Below, piece after piece: positions 5,401-43,617 of a DNA stretch of 64,000 nt. Position numbers and translations under genes: made by a program. The notes below the pieces were generated by a model. It worked only from the letters and a program-made list of their open reading frames with translations. It was not told the origin of the DNA and ran no database searches. The DNA is from a virus (Duplodnaviria > Caudoviricetes), in the IMG/VR virus record IMGVR_UViG_3300022752_005266, positions 2,011-66,010 of that record, one strand, 5' to 3'. How positions within the stretch are numbered: position 1 is the stretch's first letter; every line of letters starts with the position of its first letter.

Positions 5401-8400
5401 ACAGTGCGTCGGACTTCCCGGACTCCAGCGCGTCGTTCACCAGCGTCACCGTGTCGCCGATGGCGTTCTCGATGACGCGCTCGCTCGTGTCGAGCGCCTT
5501 GCGCATCTCAGGCGGCATAAGGCGCACGCCCTTTTCGCGCGCAACGTCGCCGCCGAAGAAGGCCGCCGCCACCGAGCGCAGCCCGGTGCGCAGGTACGCC
5601 GGCATCCCCGTCTCGTCGCCCTGCTTCGCGAGCACGCTCCGAAGCGACTCGACCGCCGTATCCTCTTCGATCAGACCGGTCTGCTCCAGCCGCTTCCCCG
5701 CGAGGTTCAGCTTCAACCCGCGCTTCCGCGCCGCCGTCGTCATGCGCGACTTATCGAGCTCGGCCTGGGCCTCCGCCAGATCAGACGCCGTCCAGTCCTG
5801 CTTCCCAAGCACCTTGACCGGGAAGCTGATGTACGGCTTGTCGTCCGCCACCTTCTTCGCCGCCGCGGTGTCGAACTGCTTCATCAGGTCTTCGACCGAC
5901 GTGCGCGGAATACCCTTGCGCTGAGCCTCTTCCGACAACTTGCGGAGGAACCCGATGTCCTCTTTTGGTCCGCCAAGAAGCTCTCGCCGCATCACTTGCT
6001 TCAGCGACGGGAACGACTGCTCCTCCGTCTCCTGGAGCAGACGGTCGAAGACGGCCTTGACCTCGGGAGCCACCGGCTTCCCGATGACCGGGTCGGTCAC
6101 GCCCTTGTAGATGTCGACCAGCACGCGCTTCAGATGCGCGAAGACCTCGGCAAGCGTCGGCGTCGGCGCCACGCCTTCCATGACGTACTGCTCGAACGCC
6201 TTGGCGAACAGCTCCTCGGCGCGTTCGACGTCGGCAGCGCTTCCGACAAACTCGCCGAACTCGTGCGTGACATTCACGCCGGACCGCCGGATCCAGGTCG
6301 TGATGTTCTCCATGTCCTTCACGTCGAGCGCGTTGCGACGAACGATGTGCGCGGCCTCGTGGAGCACCGTCGAGGCGTCCGCGCCGTCGAAGAGCGCGAT
6401 GACGGCACGCCCGTCTTCCGCCCAGCGAACCGTACCCTTGATCTGGCCGGTCGGCCCCACCTGTCGGAGAATGTTCGGGTCTTCGGTTTGACGAGCCGCA
6501 GCTTCCGGGATACCGGAGGGCTGTGGGGGCTCCACGGACAGGTACTTTCCGCGGGCGCCGAGCGTCTCCTTCGAGACGAAAGTGCCGTTGCCGGCGAGCA
6601 CTTCGTCGAGGCCGCGGATGATCGGTGCGTCAGACTTGAGCCCGAAGACGCTCTTCACCTTCTGAACGAACTCGACGAGCCACTGCTTCGCCTTGGCCGT
6701 GAGTCCCTTGTTGAAGGCGGCGAAACGGCCCGCGACGATCTCGCTGGCGTGAACGGCCCAGAACTCCGACGGGTTCAAGAACTGGTAGTACTGGATCGGG
6801 AGCTTGCCCGAGGCGAACGCCTCGGCCACGTCCTTGTAATCGACGCCCGTGAGCATCTTCTCCAGGAACGGCCGCTGCTCGGGCGTCGCGGTCTTCAGCG
6901 TCGCCGTGAGCTGCTTCCGCCATTCCTTGCGGATGGCGTCCTGCATCGCCTCGGGCAGCATCCGCTCGGTGTGGTGCAGGATCTCGTGCGTCGCCGTCAG
7001 CTCGTCGCCCTTGTCCTTGATGAGCACGACGAGCTGCGAGGCGCGCTCGTAGAAGCCCGCCGTCATGCTGTCTTCGCCGCCCTTGCGGACGGAGATCGCG
7101 AGCTCATCCGCGAGACGCGGGTTCTGCTGGAGGAACCAGTCCGCGAGCTCCACCCCGGCGTCGTCGAGCCGGCCGTCGGCGCGCGCCGCGAGAAGACGCG
7201 AACGCACCCAGTCCGTGCCCCGCTTCGGTCCCTGCGTCGCGCGGGCGCGTCGGATCTGTGCTTGATCGTCCAGGTCGTCGGTGATCGCCGCGACGAGCTT
7301 GAAGTACTCCTGCTCGGTGATCTTGCCGGCTTGTAGACCTTCGCCCGCCCGACGGAGTCGCTTCTGCGCGCTGACCCGGAACGTCTTGGGGATGTCCTCG
7401 TACTCGTGTCCAGTGTCGACGCCCATGATTCGCGCGATCATGACGTCGGCAATCCGCGACCGGCGCGCCCGGTCCATGTCGACCCGGAACGCTTCGCTCT
7501 TCACGCTGATGCTGCGAGAAACCTCCGGCGCCTCGGCCTTCGGCGCCTCGGCCTTCGGGGCCGGCGCAGGCGCCTCGGCCCGCGGCCCCAGGGGCAGCGG
7601 CTGCTGCTTCCCCGCCTCTTCGGCGAGGCGCTTCTCCGCCACGTTCCGAGCCGCCTGATACTCCAGCTCTGCTGCTTCGTCCGCGACCTCCGCCGCGCGG
7701 AGCTCCTCGGTCGCCTTGGTCAGGGCCTGCGCCGCCTTCTTCTTAGCGGCGGGTGTCTTCGCTGCGTCGACCGCAGCCTGCGCGTCTTCCTGCTTCCCTC
7801 GCGCAATCTTGAGCTTGTTCTCGGCCACCTTGCGCGGCTTCTGGGCCTTCTTGACCTCGGGCGACTTGTCGATGTCCGCGTCCGCCACACGAACCGCCGG
7901 CGCTTCGGTCGCAGCCTCGACCGCAACTTCGATCGGTGCCTTGCTCGCAGGAGGCGTCGAAGGCTCCATCTTGGAGAGAATGTTCGCCTTCGCGCGTTCG
8001 ATCGTGTCATCGCCGGTGATGTCGGCGCGACGCCAGTTCACGTCCGTGGGCCGCTTCTCGTTGTGCTTCGCCACAGCGACGCGAGATTCCGCCTTCGCGT
8101 AAACCTCCGCTTCGTCGGGAGTCATTCCCCGGCGAAGCCCCCGAAGAAACGCGTCCTTGACGTAGCTCTTGAGCCATGCGTCAAACCCGGCCGCACCCAC
8201 CGGCACACGACCGAACGGCGCGGTCATCTTGTCCGCCCGTGCCGCCTCTTTCTGGGCTTCCGCGTCCAAACCAGTCATCGCTGCGAAGAGGCGCTTTTTC
8301 TGCTCACTCTCCAGCGTGTCATACCACGGGATCGGCTTTGCCGCTTCGACTGGCGCTTCGACAGCCGCCGTGATAGGGGTAGGGGTAGGCGGTTCTGCAA

Positions 8401-11400
8401 TAGCAGGAGTCGGAGGCTTCGGGGCTTCTGCGCGAGCAAAGGCGGCTTGCCGGCGTTCAAACGCCGCAGCGGCTTCTTCGCTGTTCTCGCCGAACTTTCG
8501 GATCGCCTCCATCCAAGCAACGTCGGCGCGAAGGATGTCGGACATCGCGTCTGCGGGCGTCAGCGTGACCGGCGCCTCGACGAAGGCCGCCTTCGCGGCG
8601 TCGAGTCGCCGGCTGAGCGCGTCCATCTGCCGGTCGATGGCGTTCGCCTCGTCCAGGTCGTCGGTTTCGAGGGCGATGTCTCGCTCACTGCGAAGACGCT
8701 CCATCTCCGCCTCAAGCTTCGCGACGTCGGGCGTCGGAGCAACGGTCGGCGCGGGAGCCTTCGGCGGCTCGGGCGTCGGGATGGCGGCCGGCACCTTCGG
8801 GGCCTCGACGACCGCCTCGGCGGCCGGCGCGGCCTCGACCGCGGCGCGCTCCGCCTTCACCTCGGCGTGAACCTGCCTGACGTCCTTCGGGTCAAGCTTG
8901 AATCCGCCGAAGAGCGGCTTGATCTTCACGCCGGGGTTGGCGCGCAGGTACTCGCGCAGCTGCGCCTTCCGGCCCTCGACCGTGTCCGCCAGGACGGGGA
9001 GCACGCCGGGGGCCGGAGCAGTCGCCTTCGGCGGAGCCGCGGCCGTCGGAGCGGCCGCCGGGGTCGGCGGAGTCACGGCTGCGGGCGGAACCGCCGGAGG
9101 CGTCGCGGGCGCCGCCGGCTTGATCTCAGGAGCCTTGCGGATGGCCGGCTCGCCCTTGGCGACGCGAGCCTCCATCAGCTTCTCGGCTTCGGCGATGCCC
9201 TGCTCGAACGCAGCGCGCGTCGAGGTAGGCGGAAGGCTACGCGACCGCACCGGCGCGTCGCCGACACGGACGATGACGCGGAGCGGTCCGCCCTTCGTCG
9301 GCTCGTCCACGATGACGCGGGCGTCTCCGATGATGATGCCCTTTGCGACACCCGCGCCGTCGGCCGTTTCCTGGGAGAACTGCACGAGCGGCGTCGGCCG
9401 CGCCAGCGCTTCGTCAAAGAGCCTCCGCGCGTCCGCGGCCGATGCGATGTCCACCAGCGGCGTACCCACCGGGATCGGCGGCCGCATGCTGGCGAGACGC
9501 GCAGCGGCGCTCGATGCAGCCCTCGGCGTTACCGACGTCGCGGCGGCCGCAGCGGCAGGAACCGCGGCCGCAGGAGCCGCGGGGGCGGCCGGAGGAATCG
9601 GCACGCCACCGGCGCGCGCCAAGTCCTCAAGCGTGCCTCGCTCGACCCCGATGTCCCGGTAGACGTCGAACAGGTCACGCTTCTGGCGCGCCGCGACCCC
9701 CTTCGCCATGGCTTCGACGCCAGTCGCCGCCTGCACCAGATCTTCGAACTTCGCGTTCGGCAGAACCTGCCGCAGCTTGTAGAGGAACAGCGAGCCACCC
9801 GGGGAGAGGCGCACCGGCGCGCCGTCCGGCCCTCGTGCCACGACGTCGTCGAAGATGGCGACGGGCTGGACGTTGATCTTCGCTTGGTCCGCGATCTCGT
9901 CGCGGAGCAGCGCCGCAGCCAGCCCACGCGCCTCGTTGTTCTGCTCAACCGCGCGCAGCGCCCGGTCGAAGAGCGCCATGTCAGCAATCCGAATCTCGTC
10001 GATCGTCTTGCCCTTGACTCCGCTGAGCTTGCGCGCCAGCTGCGAGGGCAGCCGACTCTCGCCGGGCGTGTGCAGCGCCTGCCGCAGCGGCGCGTAGTAT
10101 TCCGTGCCGTACTTCGGGCTCGCCTTCAGGTCGGCCTGGAGCGCAGCCCGAAACGCCTTCTCGTCGGTGAGCGCCAACGGCGCGCGCTTCGCCACGATGT
10201 CGGCGAGCTCATTCACCTCGTCGGCGGAAATCGTCGGGAACTTGAACTCCTTGTCCTTCGCGAGGCGCGCCCTCGCGCGGTTCAGCACGTCGCGCGTAGC
10301 GCCACGGGCGTAGAACTCGGCGTACGCGTCGGTCGACTTCGGCGCGTTGGCGAGGTAGCTCGCCTTGGCCTCGGAGATGCGCTCCAGCTGACGCCGCGTG
10401 TTGTAGAGCTCCGAGTACGCGGTCATCGGAATGTCGCGCTTCTTGAGCTTCGCGCTGAGGATGTCCTTGCGCAACGAGGGGTGCAGCCACGTCCGCGATT
10501 CGGCCTCGCGCGCCACCTGCTGCGAGAAGTCGCCGGGCCCGCCACCGATCAGCGCAGCGAGGTCCTCGTTGTAGATGTCGCTCTCGGGGTCGTGCATCTT
10601 GATCGCACGCGCCGCCTCGGCGTCGAACCGGTCGAGGCTGTCTGCTGCGACGGGGAGCAGATTTCGGAGCTCCGCCTCGGCCTCAATCGCCTTCTCGTAC
10701 TGTCCTGCCTTGCGAGCCTCCGCGGCCACGCGCAGCAGCTCGGTCGCCTTCGGCGCAGCGACTTTGAACTTCGCCGTCCTCGCGGCGGCGCGGATGCCCT
10801 TGTACGCGACGTCTCCCGCAGCCAGCACATCCGGGAACGCCACCGAGGCCACGAACCCCGCGGCGACGACGGGCGCGCGGACGAACGCCGAGGAGCCCTC
10901 CGTCTCCTCCAGCGCGTAGTCCAGGAAGTTTGCGCCGGTCTGGACGCCCTGTGCCGCCGTTCCGCCTTCAAGCTTGCCGACGATGGCCGCCTGGGGAACG
11001 TCAATCGCGCGGAAGAGTACGCCGAGCGGCGACTCCTGGCGGAACACCGCCTGATTCTTGTTGTTGAACCCGATGAGCTCGATGTTCGGCTTCAGCGCGC
11101 CGAAGAAGCCGGGAGGCACACGCCCTTCCGTGACCTCGACATCCTGCATCGTGACCGCGGGCGTCCACTGCCCGACGGTCTTGTACGCCATAATCTCGTT
11201 GACGGCCTGCCGACGAATCTTCGCCATGCGCTCCGTCGCATCGGGTTGCGACACCGAGATGTTCGCGCGGCGCGCGAGCTCCTCTGTACGCTGCTGAATG
11301 TAGCGCTGCGTCGCACCCGTCTCGGACCGACGCCCGTAGAGGTCGTACAACTGGACGGCGTTCTTGTCCTTCTTCAGCCCCTGCACGAGCAGCGCGGCCA

Positions 11401-12205
11401 CGGTGTAGCCGTGCTCGCCCGGCTTCGAGACTTCAGGGAGCTCCGTGCTGGTCCCCGCGGCGAGGTAGCCTCGCGCGCCCAGGGCACCCGCGGCGGCGGC
11501 GCCGGCAGCCGCGCCCGCCGGCCCGCCCGCGAGCCCGCCCATCACGGCGCCAAGAGTCGCGCCGCCGGCAGCCCCGGACACGCCCTTGTCGGCGCCCGAC
11601 TGCACGATTTCAATCGTGTCGCTGGCGATGCCCTGCTGGGCCTTCTCGGCCGCGTCAACGATCTTCTTGAACGCCGCCGCGCGCTCGTTGACCGGCATGA
11701 AACCGAGCACGCCGCGCTCGCGGTTCGCCTGCGCGACCTCGTCGTAGCTGCGGCCCTTGCGCCGCGCCTCGTAGAGACTCTCCAGGTTGACGCCCTGCGC
11801 CTCGGCAACCTTGTTGATCTGCTCGAAGGGCAGCCCGGTGCGGAGCTTATACGCCGCAACCGCGCGGTTGAACGTCGGGCCCGTCGCGACATCAAAGAAC
11901 TGGCGGTAGTCGACGATGCGCTTCAGGTCAGGGGGCAGCTCAAACTTTTCAAGAGGAGGCGCCTTGACAGGCTCCGCGGCTTTGGTTACCGTAGGGCCAG
12001 GGGGCCGTGCGGTCTTCTTCTGCTTCGGAGCGGCAGGAGTCGTGGCGGCCGGAGCAGGTGCGGCGGGGGCCGGAGAAGGCGCGACCGGCGCGGGGGCCGC
12101 AGCGGCGGCTTCGGCCTGCTTCTTCTCGGCGGTCTGCTTCAGCTCACGCTCAAGGAAGAACTTCTGAGCGGCGAGTTGCTGGGCGGCATCGGGCTTCCCG
12201 GCCAT
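2480..12205 (-). CDS. giant polyvalent/internal virion protein (~3,240 aa) with two zincin-like metallopeptidase motifs
   Basis: AGGAGA RBS before MAGKPDA. Motifs THEILHH...SEFWA and VLHEAAH...EELFAKAFEQY; Pro/Ala linkers; C-terminal 'LYDYS...MFPFWAFQK' region resembling large ejected phage proteins. Confidence 0.8.
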   Translation of the reverse strand: MAGKPDAAQQLAAQKFFLERELKQTAEKKQAEAAAAAPAPVAPSPAPAAPAPAATTPAAPKQKKTARPPGPTVTKAAEPVKAPPLEKFELPPDLKRIVDYRQFFDVATGPTFNRAVAAYKLRTGLPFEQINKVAEAQGVNLESLYEARRKGRSYDEVAQANRERGVLGFMPVNERAAAFKKIVDAAEKAQQGIASDTIEIVQSGADKGVSGAAGGATLGAVMGGLAGGPAGAAAGAAAAGALGARGYLAAGTSTELPEVSKPGEHGYTVAALLVQGLKKDKNAVQLYDLYGRRSETGATQRYIQQRTEELARRANISVSQPDATERMAKIRRQAVNEIMAYKTVGQWTPAVTMQDVEVTEGRVPPGFFGALKPNIELIGFNNKNQAVFRQESPLGVLFRAIDVPQAAIVGKLEGGTAAQGVQTGANFLDYALEETEGSSAFVRAPVVAAGFVASVAFPDVLAAGDVAYKGIRAAARTAKFKVAAPKATELLRVAAEARKAGQYEKAIEAEAELRNLLPVAADSLDRFDAEAARAIKMHDPESDIYNEDLAALIGGGPGDFSQQVAREAESRTWLHPSLRKDILSAKLKKRDIPMTAYSELYNTRRQLERISEAKASYLANAPKSTDAYAEFYARGATRDVLNRARARLAKDKEFKFPTISADEVNELADIVAKRAPLALTDEKAFRAALQADLKASPKYGTEYYAPLRQALHTPGESRLPSQLARKLSGVKGKTIDEIRIADMALFDRALRAVEQNNEARGLAAALLRDEIADQAKINVQPVAIFDDVVARGPDGAPVRLSPGGSLFLYKLRQVLPNAKFEDLVQAATGVEAMAKGVAARQKRDLFDVYRDIGVERGTLEDLARAGGVPIPPAAPAAPAAAVPAAAAAATSVTPRAASSAAARLASMRPPIPVGTPLVDIASAADARRLFDEALARPTPLVQFSQETADGAGVAKGIIIGDARVIVDEPTKGGPLRVIVRVGDAPVRSRSLPPTSTRAAFEQGIAEAEKLMEARVAKGEPAIRKAPEIKPAAPATPPAVPPAAVTPPTPAAAPTAAAPPKATAPAPGVLPVLADTVEGRKAQLREYLRANPGVKIKPLFGGFKLDPKDVRQVHAEVKAERAAVEAAPAAEAVVEAPKVPAAIPTPEPPKAPAPTVAPTPDVAKLEAEMERLRSERDIALETDDLDEANAIDRQMDALSRRLDAAKAAFVEAPVTLTPADAMSDILRADVAWMEAIRKFGENSEEAAAAFERRQAAFARAEAPKPPTPAIAEPPTPTPITAAVEAPVEAAKPIPWYDTLESEQKKRLFAAMTGLDAEAQKEAARADKMTAPFGRVPVGAAGFDAWLKSYVKDAFLRGLRRGMTPDEAEVYAKAESRVAVAKHNEKRPTDVNWRRADITGDDTIERAKANILSKMEPSTPPASKAPIEVAVEAATEAPAVRVADADIDKSPEVKKAQKPRKVAENKLKIARGKQEDAQAAVDAAKTPAAKKKAAQALTKATEELRAAEVADEAAELEYQAARNVAEKRLAEEAGKQQPLPLGPRAEAPAPAPKAEAPKAEAPEVSRSISVKSEAFRVDMDRARRSRIADVMIARIMGVDTGHEYEDIPKTFRVSAQKRLRRAGEGLQAGKITEQEYFKLVAAITDDLDDQAQIRRARATQGPKRGTDWVRSRLLAARADGRLDDAGVELADWFLQQNPRLADELAISVRKGGEDSMTAGFYERASQLVVLIKDKGDELTATHEILHHTERMLPEAMQDAIRKEWRKQLTATLKTATPEQRPFLEKMLTGVDYKDVAEAFASGKLPIQYYQFLNPSEFWAVHASEIVAGRFAAFNKGLTAKAKQWLVEFVQKVKSVFGLKSDAPIIRGLDEVLAGNGTFVSKETLGARGKYLSVEPPQPSGIPEAAARQTEDPNILRQVGPTGQIKGTVRWAEDGRAVIALFDGADASTVLHEAAHIVRRNALDVKDMENITTWIRRSGVNVTHEFGEFVGSAADVERAEELFAKAFEQYVMEGVAPTPTLAEVFAHLKRVLVDIYKGVTDPVIGKPVAPEVKAVFDRLLQETEEQSFPSLKQVMRRELLGGPKEDIGFLRKLSEEAQRKGIPRTSVEDLMKQFDTAAAKKVADDKPYISFPVKVLGKQDWTASDLAEAQAELDKSRMTTAARKRGLKLNLAGKRLEQTGLIEEDTAVESLRSVLAKQGDETGMPAYLRTGLRSVAAAFFGGDVAREKGVRLMPPEMRKALDTSERVIENAIGDTVTLVNDALESGKSDALYRFLSGDPRVTRLGGRPITSGGHDFMESFRTMLRRTLESLPEEQQYALSRLADVLSQPKWTEHLTTIGYEGVDADGHLIPFAKATKEAAKVRDDLGKAIETLLHASGKAEDELGIGLAQAISSAVGAPNVARPPYEFKLVELLTYIAGKTGRGYDEKGAWKMFKGDSRNAVETFLGQAGEIYNEQAKRQLAVIIGGYGSADVAKRTLIKLDLGISEPAKMAFTSWITGEAWPAQYTEEIQRIIDRYGLNADFVADRILGVDYYIPKQARERMANALARVKYRPLEASTGGDAFNTLYRYMKTRMTRGSFFLRQRYFMANTVDHFIQSGMTYGWGIAANSVTRVIAQDLMVLPAWQQALELARKLPGGEQRIPRDVLERARRALQAKGDLFGNRIGQLFGAAKYRIEVNPILEGIDGSFRAGDKVYSFREIRNLAVEEGVFASFDTRQLSNVIQREGALFINTEMMRWKNVIEGEAALEKAGEGRVLRGKIQNFLADWQSTVSDTAEAWGERERLGAMVALMEAGYDPRTAARLTIDALYDYSQSMTKADRSILVGIMFPFWAFQKNANVQVFNNLFSPWGAYRMMCIRRARERSADLLTEVLYGAVGDEFGMDVESMPPNLQDSYYSIVTEFYNQYNGDPPDDAKHALRMLLLGRGRDVEEGRLYELSPELLRMREAGLFSDIQRLSRYAQAKPSKVSRVSYLRERAGFAVPFPKTEAVQVYQSLLGDDHSFMEMFWPESSIETGLRHITQMAATLIVASSQAPDLLSGGALTEGGAREVKVMRVIEPVFDPERSPILAPLLADMSTDAMPPKKLALGVSGAAEITQRAATVVHPLIGKMIDDMYGTTFLRVPADVDPFIVDETGQNLKQLPPEEIERIRKLQAEYPDAGVLRDQRYYVRGGVWSMAFENTPLLGELNALLLRWEREPMERTNLRGQILRVCRAALGIDVSMTSPQRTVKYEEPTKLRETKGM

Positions 12206-12304
12206 CGTGTCTCCTGGGGTCGGGGCAGCCAGAACGCGGCTGCGCCCGCACCGCATCGTAGCATGTTGACGAAGCGGTTGCAGGCGCGAGGATGTAGGAA
12301 CTGA

Positions 12305-23738: not shown

Positions 23739-24791
23739 TTAGAGGGCGCCGCCGGAGACGCAGCCCTGGGCCGGGGTCTTCGTGCAGATGAGGTTGCCCT
23801 GCATCGAGAAGATCGCGGTCACGACGTCCTGGTCACCGACGCGCTCGGTGAACGGGGTGATGGACGGGGCCTCCATGAGGGGCATCTCAAGGAAGTCGGT
23901 GTTGAGGATGTAGGTGGCGCCGGTGGTGGCCGGAGCCGCGAGCATATCGGCCCGGTTGAGGTCGATGGAGCTGTACACCTTCGCCACGCCGAGGTCGAGG
24001 CCGAGCATGTTGCTCTTCTCGGTCTTGTCCTCAACCAGCGTCACGCGGACGAGGGAGAGGCGGGAGTCCTCGAAGTTGGTGTAGGTGTCGTCGTCCATGA
24101 CCACGAGGTCGGGGCCCTTGCCCATGCCGCCCGCGTAGTGCGCGCACTGACGGTAGGTCTTCCGGAGGGTCGGCAGACCGTCGGTGGCCCAGGCAGTGAT
24201 GCCGTTGTACTGGTTGAAGTGCGAGTAGCTGGTGCTCTTCGCCACGTCCTGGGTGACCTGGGTCTGAGAGGTGGTCGCCTGGAACTCCAGGAGGCCGTTG
24301 GTCACGCCCGTGCCGGAGCCGGAGGTGAAGTTACCGTTCAGGCTCAGGAAGCCGGCGAGGTCAGCGGTCTGGAACACGAGGCTACGGGAGGAGCCGGTGA
24401 GGAGGAACTTGTTCAGGTCCGCCTTGGCGCCTTCGAGGGTGGTCTGGGGGTACTCCTCGATGAGCCGGATCACAGCGAGCTTGCCGCTGTTGAAGAGGAG
24501 CTCCTTCTTGGGGATGTTGATCGCCGCGACGATGCGGTGCGGCTCCACGCGGTACCGCTTGGTCTGCTGACGGCGGGTCATGTTGAGGAGCTCGTCGCCG
24601 ACGAACACGCCAACGCCGCGGGCGGGGGCGCCACCGGCGAAGGAGCGCTCGATGATCGAGCCGCCCTCAGAGGGCATACGCGCCTTGCTCATGAGCGCGT
24701 CGAGGAGCTCGTTGGAGCGGATGAAGGAGTTGATGAGGGGGCCGCGGAGGTCCGCGAACGTGGTGTTCAGGATTTCGGTAGAGATCGCCAT
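23739..24791 (-). CDS. major capsid protein
   Basis: 350 aa with strong codon bias; 'KELLFNSGKLAVIRLIE', 'PDLVVMDDDTY' and 'GNLICT' match a widespread HK97-fold MCP family; has its own promoter. Confidence 0.8.
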   Translation of the reverse strand: MAISTEILNTTFADLRGPLINSFIRSNELLDALMSKARMPSEGGSIIERSFAGGAPARGVGVFVGDELLNMTRRQQTKRYRVEPHRIVAAINIPKKELLFNSGKLAVIRLIEEYPQTTLEGAKADLNKFLLTGSSRSLVFQTADLAGFLSLNGNFTSGSGTGVTNGLLEFQATTSQTQVTQDVAKSTSYSHFNQYNGITAWATDGLPTLRKTYRQCAHYAGGMGKGPDLVVMDDDTYTNFEDSRLSLVRVTLVEDKTEKSNMLGLDLGVAKVYSSIDLNRADMLAAPATTGATYILNTDFLEMPLMEAPSITPFTERVGDQDVVTAIFSMQGNLICTKTPAQGCVSGGAL

Positions 24792-24943
24792 TGGAAACTC
24801 CATAGCCGGCAAGGCAGACGCGCAAGCGACTCCGACCGGCCGGGTCGAAGGAACAGTTGAAGTTCTGGGAGCTGCGCCTGCCCGCTCACTGTGGCTACGG
24901 ACCCTGACGGGCTACCCGAACCGACACCGAGGGGTGCATGACA

Positions 24944-26584: not shown

Positions 26585-28237
26585 GTGAGTGCGCCGTCAA
26601 GTCTACCAGGAGGCGCGAAGATCGCGCAGGTACCGGGCCTTCACATGGGCAAGGTGCAGGCGCTCTTCAGTACGCCGTGGGCGTTCGTCTCGATGTGCCA
26701 GATCGTCCGTGAAGACGAGAGCATCGGCTACCTCGAACCGACGAACATCCAGATGAAGTTCTTGCAGGCCTGCGCGGACCATCGCTGGGTGCTCTGCGAC
26801 AAGTTCCGGCAGGCCAAGATCACCACGCCGTCCGTCATGTTGCTCCTGCGGGACTGCATGTACTTGGAAGGCGTGAAGGGTGTCCTCATCGCCGAGCGCC
26901 AAGATACGGCAGAAGACATCTTCGAGCGCATCCTCTTCGCCTACAAGCACCTGCCGGAGGACGTGAAGGTGCCGGTCGAGTCGGGCCGCAAGCCGGGCAC
27001 GACCCAGATTCACTTCATCCACGGTGGCGGCATCAAGGTGCTGACGGCAGGCGGGCGTTCCCCCGCCGTCGGCCGCTCCATCGACCGTCTGCTCATCACC
27101 GAGTTCGGTGAGGCGCAGTGGCAGCGGAAGGCGGCCGCCAACATCTTCCCCGCGGTGAACAAGCGCCAGAACGCGCGCGTCATCTTGGAGTCGACGCCGG
27201 GTTCGGCGGGTAGCCACCACGAGACGATGTGGCACAACGCGCTGGAGGGCAAGGGCCGCTTTCACCCCGTGTTCCTGGAGTGGTGGCTCGACCCGAGCTG
27301 TCGTTCCGACCCGGCCGGGTTGAAGCCCACCGACGTCGAGATCGAGTACATGAAGCGCCATCCTGGGATGGACCTTCACAACCTCGCGTTCCGTCGGCTG
27401 TCGCTCCAGACCGAGATGGGCAACGACGAGCGACTCTTCACATCGAAGTACCCGAGCGACCCGTACGACGGCTGGCTCGGAAGCGGCTCGCCGGTCATGC
27501 CGATCGATGTGCTGAAGACGTCGCTGCTCACGGCAATCGTGCCGCCGGAGCCGATGCCGAAGGGCGCGAGCCTGCTGGAGAAGCCGATCAAGGGTCGGCC
27601 CTACCTCGTCTGCGCCGACCCGGCGGGCTTCGGCAGCGTCGGCGACAACAGCGCCGTGACGGTGTGGGACACCATCGACCGCCGCGAGGTCGCGGTCTGG
27701 GAAGGCCGCGAGGACCCAGGTCGGTTCTCGGAGCGGCTGCTCAACCTCCAGCGGTATTACAACCAAGCCCTGCTGGCGGTCGAGTCGAACGCCGCGGCGT
27801 GTATCGCCATGCTGAAGGACAAGGGCGCGCGCAACCTGCTCTGGACGGACCGCAACCATCCGGGCTGGTACGCGACCGAGAAGCGCGTTCAGGAAGGCGA
27901 GGCGCGCCTCGTTCGCATGCTGCGGGACGAAGAACTGACCATCCGGTCGAAACCGCTTCTCCATCAGCTCATCAACTACGACGGCGACCGCACGAAACGC
28001 TCCGCGAACAAGGACGGGACGACGCACCACTTTGACTTGGCGCGCACCGCCGTCATGGCCGCGGACATCTTGAGCCGTCGTCGATTCACCTCGGACGAGG
28101 CGCCGATGCAGCAAACGCAGGATTTCCCGTCTTCGGACGGGCCCCGCGTTACGATTGCTGACCTCGACCGCTTCAAGCACAATGAGCGCGCAGCGGCGCG
28201 GAATCCTTTCAAGCCGATCGCTCGGGAGTGGACATGA
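26585..28237 (+). CDS. terL: terminase large subunit
   Basis: ATPase motifs 'KFRQAKITT', 'LLITE' and 'ILESTP'; RNase H-like nuclease 'CADPAG...GDNS', 'VESN', 'HFDLARTAVMA'. Confidence 0.9.
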   Translation: MSAPSSLPGGAKIAQVPGLHMGKVQALFSTPWAFVSMCQIVREDESIGYLEPTNIQMKFLQACADHRWVLCDKFRQAKITTPSVMLLLRDCMYLEGVKGVLIAERQDTAEDIFERILFAYKHLPEDVKVPVESGRKPGTTQIHFIHGGGIKVLTAGGRSPAVGRSIDRLLITEFGEAQWQRKAAANIFPAVNKRQNARVILESTPGSAGSHHETMWHNALEGKGRFHPVFLEWWLDPSCRSDPAGLKPTDVEIEYMKRHPGMDLHNLAFRRLSLQTEMGNDERLFTSKYPSDPYDGWLGSGSPVMPIDVLKTSLLTAIVPPEPMPKGASLLEKPIKGRPYLVCADPAGFGSVGDNSAVTVWDTIDRREVAVWEGREDPGRFSERLLNLQRYYNQALLAVESNAAACIAMLKDKGARNLLWTDRNHPGWYATEKRVQEGEARLVRMLRDEELTIRSKPLLHQLINYDGDRTKRSANKDGTTHHFDLARTAVMAADILSRRRFTSDEAPMQQTQDFPSSDGPRVTIADLDRFKHNERAAARNPFKPIAREWT

Positions 28238-29979
28238 ATCTCGGACAGCTGATTGACCGTCACCGCCGCTACTACGAGCGCGTCGAGAAGAAGAACTTCG
28301 ACAAGGCCCGCCGGTACTACCGCGGCGAGTTCTACGTCTCGCGAAACGACGTGAACCTTGCGGACGGCTCCATCCCGTCGTTCCTCTGCTCGAAAAACAT
28401 GATCTACGCCATCGCCGACACGGCGATCAGCGCGCTGCTCGGGCCGAACCCGAAGGTCGCCGCGAACCCGCGCAACCAGCAGAGCCAGGGCGCCATTCCG
28501 CTCGTCAACGGCCTCCTGGAGTACACGTTCGACGCGAACAAGATGCGGCGTCGTGCCGCTACGGCGCTCATCGACGCAGTGCTCTGCAAGCGCGGCGTGT
28601 TCAAGACGGGCTGGAACGTGGCGGCCGACCAGCCGCTCGTTCGCGTCCTGGAGCCCGGTGCGGTCTTCTTCGACCAGACGGTGCGCGATCCGGACGACAT
28701 CCGCTACTGGCTCGAAGCTGCGGTCATCCCCTACACCGAGTTCAAGCGGCGCGTGCAGAGCGGCGCGTACCGGTCATCGAAACTGGAGGACGTGACTCCG
28801 GACCGGTATCCGAAGTGGATCACCGACAACTACAAGAACACCGAAGGCGCCCAGCTCCGCGATGCGTTCGAGTGGGTCACGGTGTGGGAGTACTACGACC
28901 GTGAGTCGAACAAGGTCACGCACTACGTGAAGCAGGCCGATGCGGTCGTGTTCGAGCAGGAGCTCGACTATGTGCCGTACTCGATGTTCTCGCTGAACCA
29001 GTCAGCGGTCGATTGCATGGGCCTCTCCGAGGTCCAGCTCGTCCTGAATCAGCAGGAGACGATCAACGACCTGCTCACGCACATGAAGCAGATCGTTTAC
29101 CTCATGATTCCTCGCATTCTTTTCAACAGCGAGTTGATCACCGAGGAAGATCTGAATAAGGCTGTAGAAGCAGCCGCGGGGTCGTTCGTCCCGGTCAGCC
29201 CGACGAACGCCGAGGGCCTTCGCACGCTCTCGACGCTGTTCTACGAGATGCCGCTGCCGCAGGTGCCGGTGGGCGTCGAGAACTTCATCGCCCGGCAGGA
29301 GAGCGACGCGGCGTTCATCTCGGCGCTTGCCGAGGCGGCGCGCGGGCAGGTGGCCGGGGCCCGGACCGCGACGGAGATGGCGATCATCGACGCGCAGATG
29401 CGAACCCGTCTCGCGACGCGCGAGGGGCACATCAACGGCGCGCTCGAAGACGTGGCGGAGAAGTGCTTCTACCTGTCGAAGAAGTACATGAAGGAGCCGA
29501 AGCTCGTCCAGGTGTCGGGCCATGAGGGATGGAGCGAGGTGTCGCTTGCCGACATCCGGGACGTCGACGTGAACTTCTCGATGGTGTCGTACAACCCCAT
29601 CCGCCAGAACCCGTCGGTGCTCTCCGAGACGCTGCTCAAGCTGTTCCCGATCCTGGCCCAGGACCAGAACATCAACAAGCGCGCGCTCCTGGAGGAGCTC
29701 GTCACCGGCGTCGGGCTGTCGACGCGCCTCCTCGTTCCGAAGGAAGAGGTCGAGGCGCAGGAGCAGGCGGCCCAGCAGATGATGATGGCCCAGATGATGG
29801 GCGCCGCGGGTGGTGGTCTGCCGGGCGCGGGCGGTCCTCCGCCGGGTGCCGAGGGTGGCATGCCCCCCGGCGCGCCGCCGGCCGAAGTTCCCTCCGTGGG
29901 CGCCACCGAGGCGGCAACGCAGAACGTGCCGTCTGACGTCATGGCGGCCATGGGCCCCACCCCCGTCCCTGTTGCGTAG
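28234..29979 (+). CDS. portal protein
   Basis: ATGA overlap with terL; 'GVFKTGW', 'VTVWEYYD', 'ARTATE' and a Q/M/P-rich tail, typical of podovirus portals. Confidence 0.85.
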   Translation: MNLGQLIDRHRRYYERVEKKNFDKARRYYRGEFYVSRNDVNLADGSIPSFLCSKNMIYAIADTAISALLGPNPKVAANPRNQQSQGAIPLVNGLLEYTFDANKMRRRAATALIDAVLCKRGVFKTGWNVAADQPLVRVLEPGAVFFDQTVRDPDDIRYWLEAAVIPYTEFKRRVQSGAYRSSKLEDVTPDRYPKWITDNYKNTEGAQLRDAFEWVTVWEYYDRESNKVTHYVKQADAVVFEQELDYVPYSMFSLNQSAVDCMGLSEVQLVLNQQETINDLLTHMKQIVYLMIPRILFNSELITEEDLNKAVEAAAGSFVPVSPTNAEGLRTLSTLFYEMPLPQVPVGVENFIARQESDAAFISALAEAARGQVAGARTATEMAIIDAQMRTRLATREGHINGALEDVAEKCFYLSKKYMKEPKLVQVSGHEGWSEVSLADIRDVDVNFSMVSYNPIRQNPSVLSETLLKLFPILAQDQNINKRALLEELVTGVGLSTRLLVPKEEVEAQEQAAQQMMMAQMMGAAGGGLPGAGGPPPGAEGGMPPGAPPAEVPSVGATEAATQNVPSDVMAAMGPTPVPVA

Positions 29980-31239: not shown

Positions 31240-32118
31240 ATGTTCGAGCCCGCGAATGAAGAAGAAGCTGAAACCACGGAAACCGAAGAGTCCATCGAGT
31301 CGATGGACGCCGGCCCGGTCGAGGAAGCACCTGCGGTCTTCGACTGGAATGGAGAGCTGGACGCCCTTTCGAAGGCGGACTGGTTCGGGCGCGTCGGCGA
31401 CGAGGGACTGCGGAACACTCTCGTTCGCGGGTTCGAGTCCAAGTACCGGAACTTCGAACGCGGCTTCACCAAGGCGTTCCAGGACACGGCTGCCCGACGC
31501 AAGGAGATCGAGCGTCGGGAAGCCAAGCTCCGCGAAGACGAGATGCGCATCCAGCGCTGGATGACCGGCGACGCCGATCCGATGGCGGAGAAGCAGCGCG
31601 AGATCGACCAGCTCAAGGCGGCGCACGACGCCGCCCTGGAGACGCTGCGCAACGAGTACGAGCAGGCGCAGCGCCGAGCCGCAGACGAGTGGACCGGCAA
31701 GTACGGCTCGGCCGAGCGGGAGCGCGACGAGCTCCGTCAGCGGCTGGAGTCGTTCGAGTACGAGGCCAAGCAGGCCGAGGAGCGCCAGATTGAGCAGGCC
31801 GTCACCGAGGTGGAGGACTGGCTCAAGAGCGAGGCGGCGGATGTCTACGACAACGACGACGCCTTCTACGCCTTCACGGTGCTTTGCACCGGCGGCCTCG
31901 ACCCCGAGGACGCCGTCACGATGGTCCGCGCCAAGTTCGGACCGCCGCCGCCTCCGGAGCCGGAGCCCGTGCCCGAGGCGATGAACCTGATGAACCTCGG
32001 CCCGAGCCGTGGCACCGGCACGACGCAGATGGAGAACCGCTCCTACAAGGAGATCATGGACTCCATGCGCCGCGCTGCCCAGGCCGACGAGTCGCAGTTC
32101 TACAATCCTCGCCGTTGA
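31240..32118 (+). CDS. capsid scaffolding protein
   Basis: Acidic N-terminus, coiled coil, and 'FERGFTKAFQDTAARRKE' resembling the scaffold YTxKxQxxAxxRK motif. Confidence 0.7.
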   Translation: MFEPANEEEAETTETEESIESMDAGPVEEAPAVFDWNGELDALSKADWFGRVGDEGLRNTLVRGFESKYRNFERGFTKAFQDTAARRKEIERREAKLREDEMRIQRWMTGDADPMAEKQREIDQLKAAHDAALETLRNEYEQAQRRAADEWTGKYGSAERERDELRQRLESFEYEAKQAEERQIEQAVTEVEDWLKSEAADVYDNDDAFYAFTVLCTGGLDPEDAVTMVRAKFGPPPPPEPEPVPEAMNLMNLGPSRGTGTTQMENRSYKEIMDSMRRAAQADESQFYNPRR

Positions 32119-32143
32119 CAGGCCGGCGTCTCTACGGTACAAT
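32115..32143 (+). promoter_or_regulatory. near-consensus sigma70 promoter
   Basis: TTGACA-17-TACAAT. Confidence 0.8.
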
Positions 32144-32149
32144 CCGTTC

Positions 32150-32226
32150 GGGCCAGATGCGGGTTTCTGGTCCGGGGTTGGTGTAGGGTTTAACAGCCGG
32201 GAGGGGCGACTCTCCCGGCTGTTTCA
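32150..32226 (+). ncRNA. candidate small RNA
   Basis: Lies between a consensus promoter and a strong hairpin, has a 5' hairpin and a G/U-rich linker, and contains no credible ORF. Confidence 0.55.
32193..32226. terminator. hairpin, probably a bidirectional terminator
   Basis: AACAGCCGGGAG...CTCCCGGCTGTT between convergent transcription units. Confidence 0.7.
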
Positions 32227-32229
32227 CTT

Positions 32230-32388
32230 CTACTTGCCGCCGATCTTGACCTTGACCTTGACGACCGGCTTCTTCTCCAGCTTGGAGGGGTCGACCTTGC
32301 CGCGCTTGTCGGGGATGCCGTTCATCTCCTTCTGCGCGTCGATCGTGTCCTTCTTCAGGCGGCTGAGGATGTCGTAGTAGTCCATCAT
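32230..32388 (-). CDS. small Lys-rich protein (52 aa)
   Basis: AAGGAG RBS; MMDYYDILSRLKK...KIGGK. Confidence 0.55.
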   Translation of the reverse strand: MMDYYDILSRLKKDTIDAQKEMNGIPDKRGKVDPSKLEKKPVVKVKVKIGGK

Positions 32389-32391
32389 GGC

Positions 32392-33024
32392 TCACTCCTT
32401 CGAGGGGATGCTCTGCCGGAGCTTCTCGGTGGGGTTCACCGTTTCGAAGAAGCGCGCGGTGTTCTCCCCGCGATTAAGCTTCTCCTGCATGATGCTCATC
32501 AGGGCCGCGTACTCCCGGGCCTTTGGCCCGAACGGAGACGGCTGCTGGCTGTGGCCACGAAGATTCGTCTCGCCGCTGTGGTACGCGACACCCAGAACCG
32601 GGTAATCCTCGCCGAACTTCTTCTTCATGTCGCGAAGGTACTCGGCCGCGCCGCGGATGGAGTCCTCGACGCTGTCCGGATTGATCTTGTAGGCCTTCTG
32701 AACAAGCGACCTGACCTGCGCGATGCCCTTTGCGCCCTTGTCGGACGACACATACTCGCCCGGCGTCGTGTTTCCGCGCTGCTCGACGGCGATGACCGCC
32801 ATCAGCAGCTTCGGGTCGATGCCCGCCATGTCCGCGTACTTGCGGATGAACCCCTCGTTCGGCTTGACGTGCAACTCCATCGCGCGGTCGAGGTTGGCTT
32901 CTTCGCCCTTCACCGTGTCGTCCTGGCGGAAGTCCTGCACTTCGCGCATGACGCGGTCGGCGGCCATCGCCTGACGCTTCGCGGCGGAGATCGGCGGCTC
33001 TTCGGTAGTCTTCTTGTCGGCCAT
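32392..33024 (-). CDS. lytic transglycosylase (SLT domain)
   Basis: 'IDPKLLMAVIAVE', 'SDKGAKGIAQV', 'SIRGAAEYL' and 'AYHSG' SLT motifs. Confidence 0.85.
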   Translation of the reverse strand: MADKKTTEEPPISAAKRQAMAADRVMREVQDFRQDDTVKGEEANLDRAMELHVKPNEGFIRKYADMAGIDPKLLMAVIAVEQRGNTTPGEYVSSDKGAKGIAQVRSLVQKAYKINPDSVEDSIRGAAEYLRDMKKKFGEDYPVLGVAYHSGETNLRGHSQQPSPFGPKAREYAALMSIMQEKLNRGENTARFFETVNPTEKLRQSIPSKE

Positions 33025-33025
33025 G

Positions 33026-33460
33026 TCAGTACTTCATCGGCTTGGACTTGAGGAACGCTGGGACGGGCTTCTTCGCTTTCGGGGCGTCGAGCTTCATGAG
33101 CGGCTCTTCTTCGGTCGGCTCCTCGGCGTGCCCCGACTCGGGGTTGAACTTGAGGTAGTCATGCACCGAGTCGAGGTAGCTGTCGCAGACGGTGATCTTC
33201 TGCTTCACCCACTCCGGAAGCTCGCAGCCCTCGCTCATGTCGTGGATGGACTGCGCCTTGGACGCGATGGATCGCAGGTTGCCCTGCACCATGGTGACGC
33301 CCTCGTCTTCGTCCTCAGCGTCGTAGCTACCGGCCTCGCCGCCGTTGTCGAACATGCCGCCCTTCGGCATCTCGGCGTCCATCGGACCCATCGCCATGCC
33401 CTCGGACTCGCCCATCGGGTCGAAGAACCCGCTGGGGCCCGCGGCCTTCTTCTTCGCCAT
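33026..33460 (-). CDS. acidic hypothetical phage protein
   Basis: 'LPEWVKQKITVCDSYLDSVHDYL' is a recurrent phage motif; probable start MAKKK. Confidence 0.6.
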   Translation of the reverse strand: MAKKKAAGPSGFFDPMGESEGMAMGPMDAEMPKGGMFDNGGEAGSYDAEDEDEGVTMVQGNLRSIASKAQSIHDMSEGCELPEWVKQKITVCDSYLDSVHDYLKFNPESGHAEEPTEEEPLMKLDAPKAKKPVPAFLKSKPMKY

Positions 33461-33567
33461 GATCAAAATCGTCGCGGGTCCGTGCATGAAAGCCTCGATT
33501 CTGGTGTATGCTACCATCGCCATGAAGTGTCTGCAATCACGCGGCACTGGAATCTTGGAGGTTGGTC

Positions 33568-34104
33568 ATGGCTGCATATGGTTGGATCACTCGTAAGTTC
33601 ATTCGTTACGGCGAAGTCATCACGGAGCACCTCGCTACTTCGTCCGTCACCTCGGCGAAGCTCGCCTCGGGTGCGGTCGGTGCGACCGCCATCGCCAGCG
33701 GCTCGATCGCGGGCGCGAAGATCGCGAACGTGGCGACCGCCACGGGCGCCGGTACTCCGACGGCGGTGACGCCGGGTGTCCCGGTTGTCGTGGCGCTCAA
33801 CATCACGGACGCGGGGTCCTCCGCGGTTTTCGACTTCACCATGCCGTTCAAGTGCAAGGTGATCGACGCGTACATCATTCAGGTGGGCGCGGGTAACGCC
33901 GGTAACGCGGTCGTCATCAAGAACGCCGCAGGGACCGCCATCTCCAGCAGCATGAACAACGCTGCGGACAAGGCCCTCACGCGCACCACGAGCATCGACA
34001 CGGCGAACAGCACCATCGCTGCCGCTGCGGTGCTGAAGGTGGACGTGACGCGTGTTGCCGGCGCCAACGTGAACGTGTACGTCACGGTCATTCCGATCGC
34101 CTAA
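33568..34104 (+). CDS. putative virion/decoration protein
   Basis: GGAGG RBS; 'SSVTSAKLASGAV...GSIAGAKIA' repeats; has its own promoter and terminator. Confidence 0.65.
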   Translation: MAAYGWITRKFIRYGEVITEHLATSSVTSAKLASGAVGATAIASGSIAGAKIANVATATGAGTPTAVTPGVPVVVALNITDAGSSAVFDFTMPFKCKVIDAYIIQVGAGNAGNAVVIKNAAGTAISSSMNNAADKALTRTTSIDTANSTIAAAAVLKVDVTRVAGANVNVYVTVIPIA

Positions 34105-34118
34105 ACGGCGATGCGGTG

Positions 34119-34160
34119 AGGCCTGCCGGGGTTTCGTGCCTCGGCAGGCCTTCTTTCCTT
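34119..34160 (+). terminator. intrinsic terminator
   Basis: AGGCCTGCCG...CGGCAGGCCT followed by TCTTTCCTT. Confidence 0.7.
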
Positions 34161-35064: not shown

Positions 35065-35615
35065 GGGACCTCCGCGGCGACCATAACGCGGTGGTATGGT
35101 GATTGGCGAGAATCGTGGCGATATTTCTGGGAAAGTGGCGTGGGTCCCTCAACCGTAGCGGTATGGGTGGGGGGATTTTTGCGTGCGTCAGAAAGAGCGC
35201 TCCCAGAATGGGGTCCCCATTGTGTTTCCGGCGGGTGTGGTGCCTTGCCTCGATGTTGTTGTTGATTCGGCGTTGTCTCTTCGACAACGCTGTCTGCCCC
35301 GCGAGGCTCCGGCGGTCGGGGCAGCCGAGGGCGGCTGCCGCGGTGGGGTGGGCGGGCGGACGGCGGCGGGCGGTCCGTCCCAGCGCGGCGCCGCGGCGGA
35401 GGAGCGCTCGGCGCGGCGGGCCGTCGTGGTCCGTCGTGCCCGCCAACCGGCGGGGAGGAGCGGCGGCTCACCGGGCGACCGTCACGGCCCGCCGGTTCCC
35501 CCGCGACTCCCGCCGCGGCTGCGCCGCAGCGCTCCCCGCGGGGTCAGGGTAGACGCCGCGGCGGCGGAGCGGCGGCGCGCCCCGTGCCCTTGACGGCGGA
35601 TCGCGCGTAGCCGCA

Positions 35616-35690
35616 CTGGGAAGCGCTACAGGACACGTCAACCACGGGGGTATACCTACCCCTTGCCTACCCCGTCCGCGTGCCTTCCAG
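35616..35690. repeat. 75-bp element, copy A
   Basis: CTGGGAAGCG...TATACCTACCCC...TGCCTTCCAG; aligns without gaps to 39190-39264. Confidence 0.6.
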
Positions 35691-35760
35691 CGTGTTTTGC
35701 AGGTTCAAGGCCGATTCTTCGAGGCGCCGATCTCGAGGTGGGGGCGCCGCGGCGTGGAGC

Positions 35761-35789
35761 TTGACGGGTCGACCGCCCCGGTATAGCTT
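35761..35789 (+). promoter_or_regulatory. early sigma70 promoter
   Basis: TTGACG-17-TAGCTT; near copy at 37815. Confidence 0.7.
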
Positions 35790-35846
35790 GACGGTGCGGG
35801 GTCCGATCCCCCGCTGTTCCCTCACTCAAGCAACGGAGTCTCCACC

Positions 35847-36197
35847 ATGGCCACCGCTTCCTTTCATCCCCTCTCGTTCGCCGATGACACCCTGTGGGAC
35901 GCCGCGGAGAAGCTCGCCGAGCGTGCGGACGCGGCCGATCGCGCCGCGCGGCGCTGCGAGGACCGCGCGCGGTCGATCGCGGGCGCCGATCCGCGCGGAA
36001 CGGACGACGCGGCCGAATGGCTCGCCGCGGCCCGGGAGCACACGCGCGCCGCGGCCCTGTACCTCGACGCCGCGGCCCTGTTCCGCGAGAACGGCCACCC
36101 GTGCCTCGGTGGGAACCACGCCGCATGCGCGGAGGAGTCGCTCCGCGACGCGGCCCGCGCCGCCGGGGTCCACGCGTCACTGACAACCACGCGGTAG
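35847..36197 (+). CDS. early hypothetical protein
   Basis: GGAGTC RBS; 116 aa. Confidence 0.65.
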   Translation: MATASFHPLSFADDTLWDAAEKLAERADAADRAARRCEDRARSIAGADPRGTDDAAEWLAAAREHTRAAALYLDAAALFRENGHPCLGGNHAACAEESLRDAARAAGVHASLTTTR

Positions 36198-36300
36198 CCG
36201 CCCCGCATCCCCCCGCGAGGGGGGATGCCGCTCCGAGCCCCGTACCGCGGGGCTCCGACCGGCATCCCGCCGGAACCCAAGCAACGGAGTCTCAATCATG
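36198..36300 (+). repeat. ~102-bp structured intergenic repeat, copy 1
   Basis: Identical to 36741-36842 apart from one extra C; runs from a stop codon to the next ATG. Confidence 0.95.
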
Positions 36301-43213: not shown

Positions 43214-43272
43214 CCGCACCTCGACATACCGCTCCGGTATCGCTATACTCCCCCGACCCCGAGGACCTCACC

Positions 43273-43617
43273 ATGAACGACCGCGCTTTCGGCGCCGCCC
43301 TCGACGCCTACCATGACCGCCTCTTCTCGCGCGCCTACGACGGCGACGACCCCGAGCGCCTCCTCGCCGACGAGGCGGCCGCCGTCCTGGCGGGCGCCGG
43401 CTACGCCGTCGAGGACGTCCGCGATGACGGCTTCCTCGTCCGCGTGGGCGACCACGTCGTCTGCGTTTCCGAGGACGAGGATCACCCGCGCCGCTGGGAG
43501 GTGTCCACGTCCACCCGGCTGTACGCGCAGCGCCTCGGCCGCATCAGCCGCCACCTCGACGGTGACGTGCTCGGCGACTTCCGGCGCGCCACCCGCTCTC
43601 TGACCAGCAGCCAGTAA
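43273..43617 (+). CDS. hypothetical protein
   Basis: GAGGA RBS; 114 aa. Confidence 0.6.
   Translation: MNDRAFGAALDAYHDRLFSRAYDGDDPERLLADEAAAVLAGAGYAVEDVRDDGFLVRVGDHVVCVSEDEDHPRRWEVSTSTRLYAQRLGRISRHLDGDVLGDFRRATRSLTSSQ

Follow-up and report, generated by a model that had tools for sequence, protein, structure and literature searches.

A candidate small-RNA family with its own promoter and a terminator in common with the head-gene operon in uncultured Caudoviricetes phages

The DNA analysed here, called the window, comprises 64,000 nucleotides (nt; positions 2,011 to 66,010) of the IMG/VR record IMGVR_UViG_3300022752_005266, a 66,010-base linear virus of the Caudoviricetes with an estimated completeness of 94%, most of which the window covers. 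A plus-strand head block with the terminase and portal genes ends in this window with a gene for a protein of 292 amino acids (aa), and a three-gene minus-strand unit that includes a transglycosylase gene converges on it. The 111-nt gap separating these converging genes holds a sigma70-type promoter, a 5' hairpin, a linker and a terminator hairpin. We conclude that this element represents a new family of phage small RNAs (sRNAs), with a promoter of its own and a terminator common to the upstream operon.

Promoter and predicted RNA in the window

The promoter sequence, TTGACA-17-TACAAT, scores 11/12 against the sigma70 consensus (TTGACA / TATAAT, 16–18 nt apart). It is the sole match of at least 11/12 on both strands of the 64-kb window, whereas 100 dinucleotide shuffles gave a mean of only 0.01 such matches and 1% of the shuffles contained any. 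In a 10-kb scan it was one of two matches, against a shuffle mean of 0.7. The only other site in the window scoring at least 10/12 (43221–43249, TCGACA-17-TATACT, 10/12) lies just upstream of a plus-strand open reading frame (ORF) at 43273–43617. An earlier note, made from the sequence alone, had picked out TTGACA-17-TACAAT as the best sigma70 match, which is borne out by these counts. The same note called the promoter an orphan. This is correct insofar as no plus-strand gene lies directly downstream, the next ORFs with coding-like third-position G+C (GC3) being on the minus strand. It is incorrect insofar as the terminator is common to the upstream operon, and in two groups of relatives (the L007 type and L064) a plus-strand gene for a Cys-rich protein stands behind the element.

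The TGA stop codon of the 292-aa gene (32116–32118) falls inside the -35 hexamer, and hence the RNA region is also the 3' untranslated end of the head-gene operon mRNA. The locus has the arrangement of an sRNA embedded in a 3' untranslated region (3' UTR): the promoter lies at the end of the upstream gene, and a single hairpin precedes the converging ORF.

The predicted RNA would end at 32224–32226, which gives a length of about 75–78 nt. Its parts are listed in Table 1. They reproduce what the earlier note had described at the same positions, namely a 5' hairpin, an unpaired linker and a hairpin of at least 12 bp with a short T tail. Folding of 32150–32230 gave -45.7 kcal/mol, compared to a shuffle mean of -28.8 (z = -5.4), and none of the 200 shuffles was as low. 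The terminator hairpin carries a GNRA loop (GCGA) and is followed by the tail region TCACTT, with only three U (UUUC). A scan for intrinsic terminators that requires five T in eight positions does not list this hairpin with its 3-U tail. The stop of the converging 52-aa ORF is 4–6 nt beyond the predicted 3' end, and there is no overlap with the converging coding 3' end of the cis-antisense type known from OOP RNA, the ORF ending at 32230.

The longest ORF in the window RNA encodes 9 aa, and no frame is conserved among close relatives, where the longest ORFs differ in frame as well as in length (e.g. 33 aa in L021 and 3 aa in L081). ARAGORN detected no tRNA or tmRNA in the window. In Rfam 15 the best match of the window RNA was RAGATH-23, with 21 bits against a threshold of 92.6, and 16 related loci yielded no matches at the gathering score.

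Among the runs listed for the stretch, none provides raw reads of RNA, and three metagenome runs labelled 'RNA?' consist of contigs. One contig of 205 nt spans 32108–32312 and includes the promoter, and is therefore silent on the transcript start. In a freshwater run (X2), a DNA contig with a depth of about 9.5 aligns with the two flanks of the element and jumps from 32126 to 32240. A co-occurring strain thus has another sequence, or none, precisely between the -35 hexamer and the converging ORF.

The window has a G+C content of about 65%, and most metagenome runs containing the stretch bear a freshwater or lake-water label. The GenBank phage collection yielded no cultured relatives, whether searched by megablast and blastn or by tblastn with the 292-aa and portal proteins. 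The gene layout (Table 1) was called by GC3. Three small genes lie between the portal gene and the 292-aa gene, and a family search with the 292-aa protein gave no significant match. No phage RNA polymerase was found among the large ORFs tested in the window, and the early-region ORFs matched no Pfam family.

Beyond the minus-strand unit, a plus-strand ORF of 180 aa (33562–34104), followed by a clear plus-strand terminator (34118–34152, 15 bp with a T run), has two minus-strand ORFs as rivals, whose third codon positions coincide with its own. Relative to L003, L004, L006 and L007, it has the fewest substitutions at the second codon position, an argument for the plus-strand reading; conservation is limited to the first ~110 nt. 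With the plus-strand reading, the minus-strand transglycosylase operon would consist of three genes only (32230–33547). Further downstream, a gene-free stretch of ~780 nt (35065–35847) precedes a plus-strand block of small ORFs without family matches (GC 0.70–0.74). Motifs of the form CTTGACGG are repeated at about 35589, 35760 and 35788 and may be early promoters, and a 5' leader motif, AAGCAACGGAGTCTC, stands ahead of two ATG codons (35848 and 36298; the stretches concerned are 35065–35847 and 36279–36300).

Table 1. Coordinates of the element and its gene setting (window positions, except for the Cys-rich protein gene, which is given by contig)
Feature	Position	Strand	Remarks
-35 hexamer TTGACA	32115–32120	+	sequence match
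-10 hexamer TACAAT	32138–32143	+	17-nt spacer after the -35 hexamer
Predicted RNA start	G32150	+	7 nt after the -10 hexamer; inferred position
5' hairpin	32150–32173	+	8-bp stem; GGGCCAGA 32150–32157, loop 32158–32165, TCTGGTCC 32166–32173
Linker GGGGTTGGTGTAGGGTTT (RNA: GGGGUUGGUGUAGGGUUU)	32174–32191	+	18 nt, G/U-rich; unpaired in minimum-free-energy and centroid folds
Terminator	32192–32226	+	predicted intrinsic terminator with a 14-bp G+C-rich stem; 32192–32205 pairs with 32210–32223
Minus-strand structural block	up to 26564	-	includes the 3258-aa ORF and the major head protein
Giant 3258-aa ORF	2480–12256	-	sole match a PHROG of unknown function, E = 5.6e-15
Major head protein	23739–24812	in minus-strand block	PHROG, E = 3.5e-18
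Terminase	26585–28237	+	family match
Portal	28228–29979	+	family match
292-aa gene	31240–32118	+	GC3 0.87; last of the terminase/portal (head) block
52-aa Lys-rich ORF	32230–32388	-	converging; last gene of the three-gene minus-strand unit
SLT transglycosylase	32392–33024	-	Pfam, E = 2e-10
173-aa ORF	33026–33547	-	same unit as the SLT transglycosylase; coding-like GC3
Cys-rich protein gene	L007:3903–4170; L064:~1030–1320	+	~90–110 aa, CxxCxxCC near the N terminus

Conservation, selection and history of the element

Relatives were found via the 292-aa protein and then by alignment of its homologues, which gathered 22, and then 54, viral contigs and 80 metagenome contigs (the best of 89). The species-genome collection contained one related contig, L139 (70,027 bases), a near-complete relative of the phage assigned to a Myxococcaceae metagenome-assembled genome. 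This contig is probably the phage itself, and its assignment may be a binning error or may hint, at most weakly, at the host.

Within a high-G+C clade of 58 loci (57–99% protein identity), the sequence behind the stop codon occurs in 38 distinct versions. The earlier note had staked its reading in advance on conservation in relatives, and such conservation was found: 35 of the 38 versions keep a -35/-10 pair 16–17 nt apart, together with the layout of hairpin, linker and terminator. Among these 35, the -35 hexamer reads TTGACA in 15, TTGAC[TGC] in 11, TTTACA in four and TCGACG in five, and the -10 hexamer starts with TA in nearly all, while the spacer sequence is free to vary. The pair lies 3–15 nt beyond a different stop codon in L013–L016, L021 and L028, and is shifted 20 nt into the coding end in the L017 type (TTTACA-16-TACGAT). 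In these lineages, coding constraint is no explanation for its persistence. The three distinct versions without the pair are L022 (4 loci), L032 and L088. Four further whole genomes each carry the element once.

More distant relatives (at most 46% identity), which have a low G+C content and are mostly marine, show a plain terminator right after the stop codon, or other arrangements. Hence, the promoter and the 60–130 nt that follow it are a clade-specific insertion between the stop codon and the terminator. In the same slot, marine low-G+C relatives carry a different element of ~220 nt (L038:3958–4190, L040:3901–4133, L058:3904–4136). It is highly conserved, with four hairpins and a consensus fold of -83 kcal/mol. 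Compensatory changes occur in 4 of its 59 pairs (3 sequences only), and it has no Rfam match at the gathering score.

Comparison of 28 distinct predicted RNAs of the high-G+C clade showed a common layout. In 26 of them a helix of at least 5 bp begins within 9 nt of the assumed start, followed by a single-stranded stretch and then by the conserved hairpin GCCGGGAGGGG-GNRA-CUCUCCCGGC. In the relatives, the T run of this hairpin is found on its plus-strand side only, and a second, oppositely facing terminator hairpin lies downstream of it in L004, L006 and one subclade with a long 5' hairpin, which indicates that the conserved hairpin serves plus-strand transcripts. A 22-nt sequence of the GNRA-loop hairpin is also intergenic in three unrelated viral contigs (L169, L170, L171) that lack a homologue of the 292-aa protein, and hence the hairpin alone is not diagnostic of the family.

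Three subclades correspond to three forms of the RNA. The group of the window has a short hairpin and a linker with GGUGU/UUGGU. The second group has a tetraloop hairpin and the linker GUUCUCC...CUGARGG, and the third, long-hairpin group has a 5' hairpin of ~55 nt and a linker with GGUUCUCC and GUGUGGUGG. G/U-rich linker tails (GGUGU, UUGGU, GUGUGGUGG) are recurrent among the relatives.

Our results show purifying selection on the RNA. For six of 10 pairs at moderate divergence, conservation is higher in the RNA than at third codon positions in the adjoining gene (L021–L081, 97.5 vs 74.2%; L021–L087, 88 vs 68%; L016–L074, 94 vs 82%; L028–L031, 94 vs 79%; L029–L075, 83 vs 64%; L013–L082, 96.5 vs 80%). 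Covariation was found in the long-hairpin subclade. A covariance model built from four of its sequences retrieved seven other members at E <= 5e-8, and a smaller covariance search, the source of alignment A8, retrieved all seven long-hairpin members at E <= 1.1e-8. Across 11 aligned long-hairpin RNAs, 95.7% of the cells pair and 14 of the 31 pairs have changed on both sides, in an alignment that was fitted to the model, which favours structure. None of 500 shuffles paired as well, and slid controls paired at ~40%. Conservation in this subclade is 0.73 in the linker, 0.55 in the stems and 0.94 in the terminator stem. The terminator stem showed compensatory changes in 5 of 15 pairs in one set, and CG has become UA in the long-hairpin subclade. 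MAFFT and RNAalifold applied to the three subclades recovered the terminator alone, because the 5' parts are too diverged to be aligned.

In the tree of the 292-aa protein, all 25 element-bearing rows form one group, with L088 and L022/L032 as its sister. The element is followed in L007/L067/L068 and in L064 by a gene for a CxxCxxCC protein of ~90 aa with its own GGAG site, and there the hairpin lacks a U tail. Without a U tail and with a gene behind it, the element would be a 5' leader in these lineages. In the outgroups L088 and L035 the Cys-rich gene comes directly after the 292-aa gene. The window and four other whole or near-whole genomes lack it, and the module persists without a gene behind it in 23 of the 25 rows. 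Several losses of the Cys-rich gene, with the module always kept, would fit this pattern, as would regain of the gene by recombination in two nested lineages.

Possible modes of action

The conserved promoter and layout, the purifying selection, the compensatory changes and the lack of a conserved ORF support the proposal of the earlier note that a candidate phage sRNA gene of ~77 nt lies here. We consider it probable that the element is an independently transcribed functional RNA. The reading that we favour for the gap as a whole goes further and is held with less than even confidence: a non-coding RNA gene of ~75–78 nt, started by sigma70 and ended by the terminator, whose product most likely pairs with other RNAs in trans. 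Base-pairing in trans as its way of working is likewise a tentative assignment.

In the course of events that we infer, from transcription and the exact RNA ends to action in trans and the kind of target, the host sigma70-type polymerase would start at about G32150, from a near-consensus promoter that overlaps the stop codon with which the head block ends. It would stop at the GNRA-capped hairpin, which would also end the head-gene operon. The layout is that of a stable sRNA, in which a 5' hairpin beginning at the first base and the terminator hairpin would shield the two ends, with the open G/U-rich stretch between them as the working part. This stretch would pair with mRNAs in trans, at C/A-rich or ribosome-binding regions; the mRNAs would more probably be those of the host than of the phage, and the pairing would alter their translation or stability during infection. 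In the long-hairpin subclade, the better conservation of the linker than of the stems suggests indirectly that the linker is the working part, as a candidate seed or a protein-binding stretch.

Several results weigh against this interpretation. The U tail of the window RNA is short (3 U), which makes the efficiency of termination and Hfq-type binding uncertain. The exact window RNA occurs only as identical copies (L059–L061), so its 5' hairpin has no covariation evidence of its own. In the long-hairpin covariance model it scores 33.5 bits, mostly from the terminator and part of the linker, and the pair count in that subclade is favoured by the model-fitted alignment. Without the terminator, the RNA body has energy z-scores mostly between -2 and +1 (-3.3 in the window). 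The linker motifs vary by subclade, G/U-rich in the group of the window and GUUCUCC...CUGARGG in another, and the support of the element-bearing clade is only 86/73. In the four other diverged pairs, moreover, conservation of the RNA body falls below that of the gene (e.g. L016–L018, 83 vs 92%; L009–L070, 60 vs 77%; L007–L064, 51 vs 71%), because a block was replaced. Taken with the six conserved pairs, this points to constraint within lineages and replacement of modules between them.

The search for targets in the phages counts on the same side. In five genomes with 62–92 called genes each, none of the phage mRNA start regions paired better with the linker than with its reversed form as a control, and no gene was prominent among the orthologues. 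RNAduplex revealed no outlier when the linker was run against the entire window, and the motif AGGAGAACCAG was no commoner than its reversed control. A perfect 11-nt complement of the linker, CCUACACCAAC, at 24074–24084 on the minus strand in the major head gene, is within chance, with ~0.4 such matches expected according to our own estimate. The terminator pattern gave no host signal, with six scattered bacterial matches.

An alternative explanation, which we consider unlikely, is that a separately made RNA acts by binding a protein or as a decoy, for instance by sequestering an RNA-binding protein of the host, a nuclease or some sensor of defence, with the 5' hairpin as a swapped specificity module. 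This would be consistent with the wholesale replacement of the 5' hairpin between close lineages while the promoter, the end of the linker and the terminator stay. The conserved unpaired motifs inside the long hairpin (GGGUAGUG and AGAGUC...GGGUC) and the lack of a base-pairing target in the phage would also agree with it. However, no partner is known, no Rfam family of protein-binding RNAs matches, and repeated GGA or similar motifs were not found. The exact 22-mer core of the 5' hairpin had no matches in 185,579 species genomes (exact matching only), and this search revealed no likeness to host DNA or to CRISPR repeats, which an RNA anti-CRISPR mimicking a solitary repeat would be expected to show.

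Equally improbable in our view is a cis-acting leader, in which the promoter, a structured 5' region and a conditional terminator once controlled the Cys-rich gene, and in two lineages still do. In the window, such a leader would gate read-through, antisense to the three-gene transglycosylase unit, into the plus-strand ORF 33562–34104. The Cys-rich gene with its GGAG site behind a hairpin without U tail in L007/L067/L068 and L064, its place directly after the 292-aa gene in the outgroups and the weak U tail of the window would all suit this explanation. So would UCUCC in the linkers of two subclades, which by eye, not by computation, could pair with GGAGG in the 5' arm of the terminator; yet the linker of the window lacks UCUCC. 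Against it, 23 of the 25 lineages have no plus-strand gene directly behind the element, and five whole or near-whole genomes lack the Cys-rich gene. In the lineages without the gene, the hairpin has acquired a T run, and the facing second terminator in L004, L006 and the long-hairpin subclade insulates both strands. Neither a ligand-binding fold nor an Rfam riboswitch match was found.

The RNA sequence might also be nothing more than the terminator and 3' untranslated region that close the head-gene operon, with a promoter-like site that acts at the DNA level, as a polymerase barrier or an operator, or that is weakly used. By its geometry, with the stop codon inside the -35 hexamer, the stretch is indeed the 3' end of the operon, and distant relatives show a bare terminator here. 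Several lineages have a poor -10 hexamer (TACGGA, TACCGA, TACACC; 7–8/12), and short inverted repeats surround the -10 by eye in the window, L006 and L013. Nevertheless, this explanation has little probability, as it fails to account for a properly spaced -35/-10 pair that is kept when shifted relative to the stop codon, for a helix that always opens at the first transcribed bases, and for 60–130 inserted nt kept under purifying selection with covariation.

A broader idea, which we regard as very unlikely, is that the slot after the head-assembly genes is a dedicated place for structured RNAs across the whole phage group, lineage-specific and acting on a protein machine. If so, the RNAs of 75–130 nt with a swappable 5' hairpin in the high-G+C clade and the unrelated ~220-nt element of the marine relatives would be something other than ordinary mRNA regulators. 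They would act as decoys against host defence, or as RNAs in head assembly or packaging, with the swapped hairpin as the specificity part.

Least credible of all is a chance promoter match beside an ordinary terminator without separate function: G+C-rich genomes fold readily, and the same hairpin sequence is found between genes, as a plain hairpin, in three unrelated viral and five unrelated bacterial contigs, but only 0.01 such promoter matches are expected per window, the pair is conserved in 35 of 38 distinct relatives, and selection and covariation both speak against it.

Relation to known small RNAs and significance

The enterobacterial RNAs DapZ and MicL are sRNAs embedded in a 3' UTR, each transcribed from its own promoter, which lies within the upstream gene or at its end. 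The element resembles them in that its promoter overlaps the upstream coding end, its terminator is common with the mRNA, and the RNA is single-stranded from the 5' structure to the terminator. In contrast to DapZ and MicL, it is encoded by phages of a high-G+C freshwater clade, has a short U tail and no known Hfq link, and its body is swapped between lineages.

OOP RNA of phage lambda is made from its own host-type promoter and overlaps the 3' end of cII, through which it works. It is 77 nt long and is listed as cis-antisense to cII (PMC12197685). The RNA predicted here is of equal size, would likewise have its own host-type promoter and points against a converging gene. However, it ends 4–6 nt before the stop of that ORF, and in many relatives a second terminator lies between the two.

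Among phage RNAs, PreS (LPR1) of lambda is described as an sRNA of ~88 nt with the operon terminator tL2a as its 3' end, which is produced during the lytic cycle and targets host mRNAs in trans (bioRxiv 10.1101/2024.10.31.621285). The same preprint describes PreS as having a poly-U tail, as Hfq-enriched and as part of the early left operon of a temperate coliphage (bioRxiv 10.1101/2024.10.31.621285), and PreS appears in Table 1 of a review (PMC12197685). Both RNAs are short phage RNAs with a 3' end at a phage operon terminator, but the RNA of the window has a short U tail, stands in another setting and has no sequence or Rfam relation to PreS. Lambda 6S RNA is presented there as a short transcript that ends at a terminator ahead of the late genes, which Q overrides to open the late operon (bioRxiv 10.1101/2024.10.31.621285). 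The constitutive-looking promoter closely before a terminator, and the gene behind the hairpin in two lineages, recall 6S RNA. In contrast to lambda, no gene lies directly behind on that strand in 23 of the 25 lineages here.

To our knowledge, few small RNAs have been described from strictly uncultured environmental phages, and the phage small RNAs studied so far stem almost entirely from coliphages and prophages of pathogens. The RNA family comprises about 28 distinct natural variants with a clear promoter, body and terminator, measurable selection and a modular 5' hairpin. These variants offer a ready comparative set for target finding once a host or a metatranscriptome becomes available. 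On present evidence, this is a new sRNA family of a solid but ordinary kind, and the element illustrates how phages can place an additional transcription unit in front of a terminator that is already there, directly behind a stop codon.

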